In this document: positions 1 through 49,099 of the stretch, piece after piece | Layout: each line of letters begins with the position of its first letter | How positions within the stretch are numbered: the stretch's first letter is position 1 | Assembly (NCBI GenBank): GCA_951406725.2 | Contig: OX597814.1 | Location: forward strand, 142,600,001 to 142,664,000 | Source of the DNA: Octopus vulgaris | Taxonomy: Eukaryota | Length of the DNA stretch: 64,000 bases | Direction of reading: 5' to 3' | Notes under the pieces: generated by a model | What the model saw: only the letters and a program-made list of their open reading frames with translations | Databases searched by the model: none | Told to the model about the DNA's origin: nothing | Translations under genes and position numbers: made by a program

Positions 1-337
1 TCCCGAGATAGCGTCTCTGACAAACGTACAGTGTCTTTAAAAAATCACAGAAATATATTGCTACTTATATATTTCTGTATCTTTTAACACTGTACGTCTA
101 TAAGAGATGGTACCTCCGGACATATACCGCAGTTAATTCGGCTTTCAACGTTGGATCTACCTTAAGTATGATATGCAGAATGCTAATTTAAACTAATACT
201 GTTTCTGGCGCACATAAAGATTTTTTTTTCTGTTCTTATCGCATACTAGAATTCAAATTGTTTGTCTCTAATTTACATTATTTACATTTGACGGATATTT
301 GTCCGAGTTCGATTCCAGGCAGTGACCTGAATAATAA

Positions 338-422
<85 letters not shown>

Positions 423-4770: not shown

Positions 4771-5848
4771 TAGATAACATTCATATGAAATTTGAAAAAT
4801 AATTTTAAGCGTTAAGGCTTCATGGAGAAAATATATAGTCAATGAAACCATACATTGCGAGGGAAATCACATTAAATACACACGATTGAAACGAGTCGAA
4901 AGGAAAGGAAATCTATTTCTTATATTATCGATAATCCCTTGAAATATTCGATTTGTAAGCGAATTTGTTTTTCTAAGGTTGTTCTTGTTCGCCGTTCAAG
5001 GGGTGGCTCAGCCAAAGCAACTAATGATGAATCTTCGTCACCTGAGAGAAAATATGTCTATCAATCCATGCTCTTAAGTCAATAGCAGAAGCAACGGAGA
5101 AGGGTTCCAATTGGATCTGGTTCAGCAGGAATAGAAGTGAACCTCAAAAGGCGTAATTTAGCCCGCAGTCAGCAGGTGTTTTAGACTGAACTGGACACAA
5201 CAACCAAGATACTTTGGATCTGGTACACTTTACATCATCCAGGAGGATTACAATACAGATAGTAGCATAGAATGTATTTGCAAAGGGATATACAAGAGTC
5301 ATGACCTAGATGCGGCCCAGCATGCGTGCGTATCTGAGACCTCTATATGTCTTGTGAGACATGGATCTGAAGCTGTAAACTTCATCACTAAGGTGCAAAC
5401 ATTCGGCGATATATATTTATATATTTATAAAAAAACTCAGCAGTTACTCATACAATGCTTTCTGCTCCATGCCACCAATGTTTTCCATAGAGAAAAACCC
5501 AACAGTCAATAGAACTACGCAATAGAACGATCAGTAGAACTACGCAGAGGTTTCCGTCAGACCGCAAACGTTTGCTTGATGGGAGCTTCTCTGATGAATA
5601 CATGCTGTTCAGCTCTCCCTAGAGTTTCATATTACCTGTCCTGTTATATTGATGGTCTTGAAGAGATACATTCCTTTCTGTACACAATACCAAAAAATCA
5701 TGGTTCTTGTATTGTATTTAATTGAGAATAACATTTATCTGATTAGTTGTGATTAAAGTAGCAGATCATTAGTCCGGGCTAAAAAGTCATCTTCACTTCG
5801 GAGCTCATTAACAAGCAATGGCCGGACTAATTATTGAACTAGCTTCCA

Positions 5849-20971: not shown

Positions 20972-21015
20972 GCGCCTGATGAACGTACTTATGTATGTGA
21001 AACTATCAGTAGCGC
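20972..21015 (+). ncRNA. Type I hammerhead ribozyme motif, intact core
   Basis: GCGC-CTGATGA-ACGTAC(TTAT)GTATGT-GAAA-CT(ATC)AG-TA-GCGC. Stems I, II and III all pair; cleavage triplet GUA at 21009-21011. Confidence 0.8.
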
Positions 21016-21124: not shown

Positions 21125-21320
21125 GACCGCGTGTGTATCGTTGGCGATTTTCTTTCTCCGTCTTCCCTTCCTTGGACTTTTCCTTTTTTTCTATATTTCT
21201 GACGAAGAGCTCCGCTCGAAACGTTAAATACTCCTTTCTCGGCTTTCCCGAGCGTCCAATAACACTATACTTGTTCCACGTCCTCGCGTTATTGTTCTTT
21301 CTCTTTGTTCATGTTTGGAT

Positions 21321-32650: not shown

Positions 32651-33433
32651 ATTAATGGTGGTAGGAGGTCGGCAGAATCATTAAAACGTCAGAAAAAAAA
32701 TGATTTGTAGTATTTTTTCTGACATTTTAAGCCGCAGGAGTTGCTGTGTGGTAAGAAGCTTGCTTACCAACCACATTCTTCTGAGTTCAGTCCCACCGCG
32801 TGGCACCTTGGCCAAGTGTCTTCTACTATAGCCTTGGGCCGACCAAAGCCTTGTGAGTGGATTTGATAGACTGAAAATGAAAGAAGCCCGTCTTATATAT
32901 GTATATGTATATATAGGTGTGTGTGTTTGTGTGACTGTGTTTGTCCCCCCCACCACCACCACCATCACTTGACAACCGATATTGGTGTGTTTACGCCTCC
33001 GTAACTTAGCGGTTCGGCAAAAGAGACCGATGGAATAAGTACTGGGCTTACAAAGAATAAGTCTTGGGGTCGATTTTTTCGACTAAACGCGGTGCTCCAG
33101 CATGGCCGCTATCAAATGACTGAAACAAGTAAAAGAATACACGTTCTGAGTTCAAATCTCATCAAGATCCATGTTTTCTTTTCATCTTTTTTCTGGTTCG
33201 AAAAAACAAAATACCCATCAAGTTTTGGACCCATGGTATCGACTAACATCGCCCTAACTATCAAATTTGCTGATCTTGTTCTTAACTTACGAATAATATT
33301 CCTTTCTACTATACGCACAAGACCTGAAATTTGGCGGGAGGAAGCTAAACGAATACATCGACCCCAGTGTTTAACTGGTACTTATTTCATCAATTCCGAA
33401 AGGATGAAAAGCAAAGTCAACCTCAGCGGTCTC

Positions 33434-33783
33434 AACCACTATGCTATATGCCCGTGGGTATATTGCGTAGTGGTTAAGAGCGCGGGCTACTAACTCCAAG
33501 ATTCCGAGTTCAATTCTAGGCAGTGACATGAATAATAATAATAATAATAACAACAACAACAACAACAACAACAACAATAATAAAAATAATCATAATAATA
33601 ATAACATCGAAAAAATACCTTAGGAATGAGAACCCAGTTTCGAAATTTCCCCCAAAACACCTGATGAAGGCTGGAGGGTATATCAGCCGAAACGTGTTAA
33701 CAACAAGCAAGATGAGGACAAATATCCGTCAAATGTAAATAATGTAAATAATGTACATAATTCCTCATCTCTTAAATAGAACT
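33434..33783 (+). mobile_element. tRNA-derived SINE carrying a hammerhead-like motif
   Basis: A-box-like GCGTAGTGG and B-box-like GAGTTCAATTC, then (AAT/AAC)n, then AACAC-CTGATGA-A-GGCTG...CAGCC-GAAAC-GTGTT at 33656-33698. Confidence 0.7.
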
Positions 33784-33818
33784 GAAAAAAGGTTACACGT
33801 TAAAATACGTTAAAATAC

Positions 33819-35364: not shown

Positions 35365-35566
35365 TGACCGCGCGTGTACCGTTGGCAATTTTTTTTCCTC
35401 CGTCTTCCCTTCTCTGGATCTTTCCTTTTCCTATGTTTCTGACGAAGAGCTCCGCTCGAAACGTTAAGCCCTCCTTCTTCCCTTCCTTCCTGAGTGTCCA
35501 ATAATACTATATTGGTTCCACGTCCTCGCGTTGTTGTGTTTTCTCTTTGTGTTTTCATGTTTGGAT

Positions 35567-45603: not shown

Positions 45604-49099
<3,496 letters not shown>

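Follow-up and report, generated by a model that had tools for sequence, protein, structure and literature searches.

A Penelope-like element of Octopus vulgaris with a tRNA-Asn-derived head in its pLTR: twin-arm insertions and a candidate Pol III promoter

Results

The window copy

The window, by which we mean the whole 64,000-nucleotide stretch analysed, contains a two-armed copy of a repeat family near its middle and the junction of another copy near its left edge. The features are as follows.

33426..33453, minus strand: remnant of an inverted second arm, comprising the head up to about +28 (sequence match and fold)
33450..33459, no strand: GC palindrome at the head start, which is the hinge between the two arms and a family-wide hotspot of 5' ends
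33456..33528, plus strand: tRNA-Asn(GTT)-derived head (alignment to the genome's tRNA-Asn)
33463-33473, plus strand: A box, damaged in the window copy by a T at the second (purine) position
33508-33517, plus strand: B box
33531..33604, plus strand: (AAT/AAC)n spacer of variable length
33604..33784, plus strand: pLTR body, which is the 5' end of the ORF of a Penelope-like element (PLE); its 3' end lies at the long family end point
33626-33628, plus strand: ATG at the ORF start; the frame is broken in the window copy
33656..33698, plus strand: minimal type I hammerhead (exact core pattern)
33656-33660 and 33694-33698, plus strand: hammerhead stem I
33661-33667, plus strand: CUGAUGA of the hammerhead core
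33669-33673 and 33684-33688, plus strand: stem II, 6 bp when folded
33689-33693: GAAAC, followed directly by GTGTT, the 3-nt cleavage triplet being absent between 33693 and 33694
33732..33756, plus strand: 9-nt repeats in which the short family 3' ends fall (inferred second start of reverse transcription)
271..342, no strand: central junction between the arms of another, more decayed insertion of this family

The preliminary description had proposed a tRNA-like promoter head followed by a hammerhead scaffold, and both are present. The head has A and B boxes and is identical to the genome's tRNA-Asn(GTT) at 44 of 76 positions, with an alignment score above that of all 2000 shuffles; the acceptor stem of the ancestral tRNA is lost. 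By this alignment the head is derived from tRNA-Asn. The A and B boxes of the family majority fit the Pol III consensus. Stem I, CUGAUGA, stem II and GAAA all lie where they had been placed, and the NUH triplet is absent from this copy, as had been noticed from the letters. The window hammerhead thus differs from the minimal type I hammerheads of PLEs in both its NUH and its palindrome. Rfam and ARAGORN recognised neither the head nor the hammerhead, whether in the window or in an intact copy.

An inverted copy of the head had also been reported before the head itself. It matches at 17 of 20 positions, or at 23 of 28 when extended to 33426, and the resulting head hairpin has a z of -7.3, with none of 200 shuffles as good. 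The tail of the inverted arm is gone at 33426, where the arm adjoins a fragment of an unrelated repeat (33303-33429), probably an antisense tRNA-type SINE that is abundant and found in at least 12 other places. The two meet via a short GCG overlap, which suggests a later deletion. We found no target duplication around the window copy, which fits a lost left end. By its sequence, this copy is a long-ended arm with a 28-nt remnant of its partner. It is most likely dead, given the absent triplet, the damaged A box and the broken frame. The junction previously placed at 271-338 is real and spans 271-342, joining a minus-strand piece of tail (34 nt, 100% match) to the plus-strand B-box half of a head with a 3-nt overlap.

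The family and its hammerhead

The genome searched (2.8 Gb, 227 contigs) contains at least 3300 candidate loci for the tail. The exact hammerhead pattern occurs 4224 times with a GTT triplet between GAAAC and stem I and 536 times without it, and backward-read controls of both patterns gave 0 matches. Folding of the hammerhead region alone is no more stable than that of shuffles (z of -0.4 in the window and -1.2 in an intact copy); the argument that the hammerhead is real comes from an exact core repeated in thousands of copies with backward-read controls at zero. Rough scaling, based on 14 of 60 unselected arms that match exactly, gives about 18,000 arms. Family k-mers have matches in six organisms, and no related loci were found in viral contigs.

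Minimal hammerheads of PLEs are described, in the available part of the source, as having CUGANGA and GAAA, an extra base before stem II, G10.1-C11.1, a palindromic 15.2-16.2 and NUH, and as pairing as dimers via such a palindrome (PMC4209133). The family majority has the core, the extra base, G10.1-C11.1, the palindromic 15.2-16.2 and NUH, and a common variant of its core falls at the free N7 position. Its sequence is GAAAC-GUU-GUGUU, with the GUU sitting within the palindrome AACGUU. The preliminary description had asked whether the family consensus reads GAAAC-GTH-GTGTT, and with GTT in the majority the answer is affirmative.

Loci fetched twice (L031, L043, L078, L089, L095, L098 and L107) and the tandem array L133 were left out of the counts. 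The segmental duplicates L104 and L105 were also left out of most later counts, from the 5' end analysis onward, and arms typed neither intact nor deleted were set aside in 2x2 tables. The array itself (L133:3204-5112) consists of nine tail monomers of about 215 bp in tandem and without a head, two with the triplet and the rest deleted; it is capped by a short inverted arm and is retrozyme-like.

Elsewhere in the window, two copies of another repeat at 21199-21226 and 35439-35466 have a minimal hammerhead-like core (CUGACGA, a short stem II, GAAACGUU). Both end in (TA)n, and they probably belong to another PLE family as its pLTR. At 20976-21000 CUGAUGA...GAAAC is matched once more, here with what may be an AT-rich stem II. 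Degenerate (GT/GTAT)n microsatellite sequence, extreme in its GC skew, fills 2.1 kb at 46307-48475.

The autonomous element

A reverse transcriptase (RT) fragment adjoins one of the tail loci, and a search with that fragment returned 6564 candidates. The loci picked by RT carry the same head about 30 nt 3' of the stop codon of an RT-endonuclease ORF. This ORF has 569 aa in L134 and matches Pfam RVT_1 with an E of 2.7e-6, below the curated cut-off. It has 2744 homologs at E<=1e-30, the full-length ones being about 800-850 aa long. A GIY-YIG-like motif can be seen by eye from aa 500 on; Pfam GIY-YIG has no match on this ORF and is listed for the homologs P0069, P0073 and P0096. No CX2-5CxxC Zn-finger-like motif was seen by eye in the linker before the endonuclease, and the lack of such a motif is given as a criterion for Penelope/Poseidon in the available text of PMC8557442. 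Solved structures gave no match to the ORF, Pfam gave nothing useful on the short L016 pieces, and no intact full-length copy of the PLE was found.

In L286 the tail continues into the 5' part of the ORF, and the translated tail aligns with the N-terminal end of a homolog of 847 aa (52% over 43 aa, with an E of 3e-8 in a set of 120 proteins). The N-terminal motif of the tail is present in only 1 of 23 long homologs, and the N-terminal frame was built from few copies (coverage 4-10). The order of a unit is head, (AAT)n, ATG, hammerhead, ORF (with RT and, at the C-terminus, a GIY-YIG-type motif), stop and head again. Units are arranged in partial tandem, and the sequence around the ORF start recurs identically as the 3' repeat, as is expected of a pLTR. 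On this arrangement, an autonomous PLE has the head, (AAT)n and hammerhead together as its pLTR, and by the reconstructed frame the hammerhead is coding sequence for the N-terminus of the ORF.

The suggestion that mobility depends on a PLE is borne out by this block. The accompanying idea of a separate, non-autonomous fusion of promoter and ribozyme has to be given up, because the block is the autonomous element's own pLTR and the hammerhead lies inside the first codons of its ORF. The tail lies within 1.5 kb in 27 of 29 head-picked loci, so that, at this identity, the head does not come from a separate abundant SINE. At L147-L150, near-identical PLE fragments sit beside near-intact LINE-like endonuclease-RT frames in four places, three of them on one small contig; this block looks recently duplicated.

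Twin-arm insertions

A head-to-head partner is present in 110 of 173 motif-picked loci. Among the 153 pairs from all loci, 120 combine a long and a short arm, 10 have two short arms, none has two long arms and 23 have other ends. In the 120 long-and-short pairs the long arm has its 3' end at about 180-184 and the short arm at about 140-160. A duplication of at least 7 bp touches both outer ends in 80 of these 120 pairs, with peaks at 9 and 12-13 bp, and a mismatched-flank control showed no such duplication. Given that one target duplication is shared by both outer ends, each pair is one insertion. An inverted 5'-truncated copy and a 30-40 bp tail at one end only were both found; according to the available text of PMC8557442, an inverted copy and a 30-40 bp tail are known marks of PLEs. 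A PLE protein assayed in vitro cut both strands, extended them and used two internal start sites (PMC11167929, in the sections available), which suggests one cDNA per nick and per start site.

Reads of the RNA runs X22-X24 at L181:1916-2197 have 24-25 A>G and 26-30 T>C sites, compared with 4 and 2 in the assembled contigs of another run, and position 2058 stands at about 25% versus under 0.1%. On this comparison with another run's contigs, the sites are likely A-to-I editing of twin-arm hairpins. Since twin arms form long hairpins in transcripts and carry many such sites, they are candidate editing substrates.

The missing cleavage triplet

The triplet is missing from 11.3% of copies by genome counts and from 6 of 49 typed arms in unselected loci, and 9-10% of the L181 RNA reads have the 3-nt loss, which removes one codon in frame. 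The family has two subfamilies, T60/A129 and A60/G129 (OR 37). The T60A marker agrees between arms in 104 of 112 pairs (OR 145), whereas the deletion agrees in 59 of 96 (OR 1.75, p 0.25), and position 60 still agrees in 28 of the 32 pairs that are discordant for the deletion. The typed partner was deleted in 9 of 36 deletion-picked loci as against 3 of 32 intact-picked loci (p 0.12). The deletion is unlinked to subfamily (27/70 versus 87/251), the subfamilies are equally divergent (4.65 versus 4.68%), and the proportion deleted does not rise with divergence (5/38, 7/38, 7/39). Because the deletion is not shared by arms, is not tied to subfamily and does not rise with age, it arises per arm, and we consider from these patterns that the triplet is most likely lost at insertion.

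Its use as a subfamily marker was rejected, as it is equally common in both subfamilies. A link between the deletion and G38A (p 7e-6) was set aside as a sampling effect: G38A is a CpG change, is unshared between arms, and accompanies a higher CpG decay in deletion-picked loci.

The head and the starts of the copies

For the 5' ends we used 312 arms from loci picked only by the hammerhead motif. Of these, 134 could be chained as far as the head, 105 have their start within the tail, and another 73 begin in the microsatellite or are broken at it; 10 extend further than 100 nt upstream of the head. Position +5 of the head is reached by 96 arms, of which 82 end at -17 to +5 (69 at -8 to +5, and 13 at -17 to -9 with fold-back) and 14 go further. 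The stop rate at the head start is about 0.05 per nt, versus 0.001-0.012 in other bins of the head and ORF. Starts are split between -6/-5 and +1 instead of falling on one base. Genome-wide, there are 5660 copies of an 18-mer from the head versus 1172 of one from just upstream, or about 14% after decay correction. A second internal hairpin (+17 to +40) also collects junctions, with 7 starts at +17, which indicates that hairpins by themselves bias the position of 5' ends.

Runs of four T are absent from the 2.6-kb majority unit (synonymous shuffle P 0.03, a post hoc and weak test); in 20 related ORFs, 156 such runs were observed versus 145 expected. The 5' end hotspot, the drop in 18-mers upstream and the lack of T runs fit a Pol III start near -5. 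The A box lies 13 nt after such a start, a usual spacing for Pol III. No Pol III transcript or cleavage product was seen in three raw RNA runs (X22-X24) chosen by species label, which are standard RNA-seq and as such uninformative for Pol III use. The reads lie equally on both strands without a pile-up of ends, as expected for copies inside other transcripts. Cutting by RNase P at +1 was considered and rejected on inspection, since the acceptor stem no longer pairs.

More than 20 tRNA-Asn(GTT)-like genes are clustered within 80 kb elsewhere in the genome (G000:C20:52848414-52927519). An unrelated complete PLE at L305 carries, in both copies of its pLTR (1988-2190 and 4779-4985), a stretch resembling A and B boxes about 160 nt 5' of the hammerhead; it is the only pLTR with such a stretch among 79 related loci. 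This PLE has a 901-aa frame with 38% protein identity, an identical 422-bp tandem repeat and two TTTT runs in its unit. The stretch is not significantly like tRNA-Asn, and Rfam and ARAGORN found neither a tRNA nor a hammerhead in this pLTR. As a single moderate hint, it may mean that a tRNA-like arrangement arose in PLEs more than once.

Discussion

We read the stretch in the window as one arm of a twin-arm pLTR insertion of an autonomous PLE with a captured tRNA-Asn-derived head, likely a Pol III promoter for SINE-like RNAs that are copied by the element's protein. From the sequence evidence assembled here we give this reading a probability of roughly 0.68. In this scenario, Pol III initiation near -5 of the head is somewhat probable, and it would yield a short RNA that holds both the hammerhead and the region for protein binding and initiation, and thus a ready template. 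The PLE protein would quite probably make a staggered cut and prime one cDNA per nick, one from each internal start site, with the ends then joined, often via the GC palindrome. As a dimer, the hammerhead might cleave after GUU, and reverse transcriptase could then produce the 3-nt loss by jumping across the cut via the shared GU, a step to which we give slightly less than an even chance.

Several other explanations have to be weighed against parts of this reading. The preliminary description suggested snap-back, in which a single cDNA folds back and copies itself, as the source of the inverted structure. For short fold-backs at the head palindrome this stands, as those of 5-30 nt are common, the window copy included. 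As an account of the long arms it is very unlikely, despite an excess of rare variants common to both arms (34 versus 14 by chance): the arms end at different fixed sites, either arm can be the longer one, the two arms are often joined at positions that do not correspond, and the arms usually differ at the deletion, with a typed partner intact in 27 and deleted in 9 of the deletion-picked loci. This discordance largely refutes snap-back for long arms, unless it is only when the second copy is made that the deletion arises. As to the deletion itself, a jump from the 3' to the 5' cleavage product via the shared GU gives exactly the 3-nt loss, and the loss may, with a probability a little below one half, be a scar of hammerhead cleavage. 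Ordinary slippage at the GT-GT micro-repeat, in reverse transcription or later replication and unrelated to cleavage, also comes near an even chance. Neighbouring sequence is lost as well, nearby AAC micro-repeats losing 3 nt in 5/197 and 5/200 cases (about 2.5%) and the 9-nt repeat being affected in about 9%; the triplet loss is in frame, as are 221 of 293 tail deletions (a count that includes the triplet deletion); and the cleavage site shows no accumulation of 5' ends (9 starts at 87-96, a rate of 0.0049 versus about 0.003). Slippage accounts less readily for a triplet loss that, with no more than 2 nt of microhomology, has about four times the frequency of the AAC losses, for its lack of growth with age, and for the 8 of 23 short 3' ends, small numbers, that fall within 86-95, the ten nucleotides around the cut. 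Correction of the palindrome would, on inspection of the sequence, remove 2 nt and not 3. For the anole PLE, the available sections of PMC11167929 report that hammerhead mutants had no effect on insertion in vitro and that no RNA-seq reads ended at the cut site.

Two further explanations concern the head. The family could be an independent, non-autonomous SINE with its own master genes, in which a tRNA head was fused to the hammerhead end of a PLE. Only about 14% of head-bearing arms continue to the ORF side, few motif-picked arms extend far upstream of the head, and some arms open with fold-back sequence and could stem from ORF-less source loci. An independent SINE is nonetheless quite unlikely, given that the autonomous element itself carries the head, that both subfamily markers occur in ORF-linked (3/22) as well as head-start arms (29/95), and that ORF-bearing and head-start arms are found within one insertion (L136, L110). 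The head is homologous to a tRNA and has A and B boxes, as in tRNA-derived SINEs, and a lineage of its own, distinct from the autonomous partner, was not found; both subfamilies occur with and without the ORF, a comparison whose power is limited by 22 ORF-linked arms. Alternatively, the head may be a dead passenger, the copies deriving from Pol II transcripts of the full PLE whose cDNAs stop or fold back at the GC palindrome and so mimic a SINE start. This we consider improbable on balance, though of some weight: the palindrome lies at the centre of the 5' hotspot, the sequence in arms extending to -13/-16 is fold-back and not ORF-side, the hairpin at +17 to +40 collects junctions too, and neither a head-only subfamily nor Pol III RNA was seen. 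It leaves unexplained why 85% of arms stop at a hinge hairpin that is weak, ranking 7th among the 12 best 20-nt windows of the unit, and why there are many arms whose ends at -6/-5 or +1 are joined, with no fold-back, to unrelated positions of the partner. Nor does a passenger sit well with boxes that are consensus-perfect in the majority, the rest of the head being 58% like tRNA-Asn, or with the distance from the -5 start to the A box.

Returning to a head that serves as a promoter, a more ambitious scenario, doubtful as a whole, would be that the PLE acquired its promoter in the form of a tRNA gene and rid its full length of Pol III terminators. A single Pol III unit would then give rise to both the element and a swarm of SINE-like pLTRs, each insertion would be two cDNAs, one for each nick and start site, and about a tenth of the arms would record cleavage in vivo by an exact 3-nt scar.

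The family bears on the promoters of PLEs, on the role of their hammerheads and on the origin of inverted, tailed insertions, for which its many copies are a large set of natural data. The candidate Pol III promoter within the pLTR would show a SINE budding from a PLE, and may hint at how Sm-alpha-like elements originated. The strict pairing of 3' ends within one target duplication is an in vivo counterpart of the two-site, two-strand extension seen in vitro, and the recurrent deletion exactly at the predicted cut may be a record of cleavage left in the genome.

That PLEs have hammerheads in their pLTRs, inverted copies and tails is already known. A PLE with a tRNA-derived or Pol III promoter was not found in the main text of the openly accessible papers searched, and the family may already be catalogued as a SINE or a PLE, for instance in Repbase/Dfam. 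Of the two octopus repeat papers, the available text of PMC13282606 does not describe the family or mention the hammerhead, and that of PMC8967140 does not describe the family.

The closest likeness is to the pLTRs of EN+ PLEs of the Penelope/Poseidon type, which share an ORF with RT and a C-terminal endonuclease (in the octopus family a GIY-YIG-like motif seen by eye), and a hammerhead over the ORF start (PMC4209133, PMC11167929, PMC8557442, each in the parts available). They also share the palindromic stem III, the inverted 5'-truncated copy and an optional tail of 30-40 bp. Like the octopus family, the anole PLE is in partial tandem and its ORF also starts in the hammerhead. The long end here lies 93 nt after the predicted cut, and the anole element implies 85-92 nt (both anole comparisons from the available text of PMC11167929). 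Unlike these elements, the octopus family has a tRNA-derived head with A and B boxes in its pLTR, at which most copies start; its pairs have the long end on one arm and the short end on the other, and loss of the triplet occurs arm by arm. Such a head, such a pairing of ends and such a per-arm loss of the triplet were not found in the available portions of the literature on EN+ PLE pLTR hammerheads.

Non-LTR retrozymes are non-coding, hammerhead-bearing derivatives of PLE pLTRs that are defined as tandem repeats, according to the available part of a preprint (bioRxiv 10.64898/2026.07.22.740005). The octopus copies resemble them as PLE pLTR derivatives and in the one array of monomers of about 215 bp (L133). 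They differ in that the family consists mostly of dispersed head-to-head pairs with a tRNA head, the array being without it; neither the window copy nor most loci are hammerhead tandem repeats.

In the schistosome SINE-like elements Sm-alpha and Sj-alpha, a type I hammerhead comes after a Pol III promoter of tRNA origin, and their copies number tens of thousands (PMC6765202, PMC2770079, in the sections available). A tRNA-derived head, a type I hammerhead and a high copy number are thus common to these elements and the octopus family. Sm-alpha and Sj-alpha are non-coding and often in tandem, with no autonomous partner named in those sections, whereas the block described here is part of an autonomous PLE and its hammerhead is coding.

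The tRNA-derived SINEs mobilised by LINEs combine an A/B-box tRNA head with a 3' part common to an autonomous retroelement and are flanked by target duplications, and the octopus copies are similar in all three respects. They depart from these SINEs in having a PLE as partner, no 3' poly(A) or simple-repeat tail, internal initiation and twin arms, and no separate master lineage was found for them. If Pol III use holds, the family behaves like Sm-alpha or a SINE.
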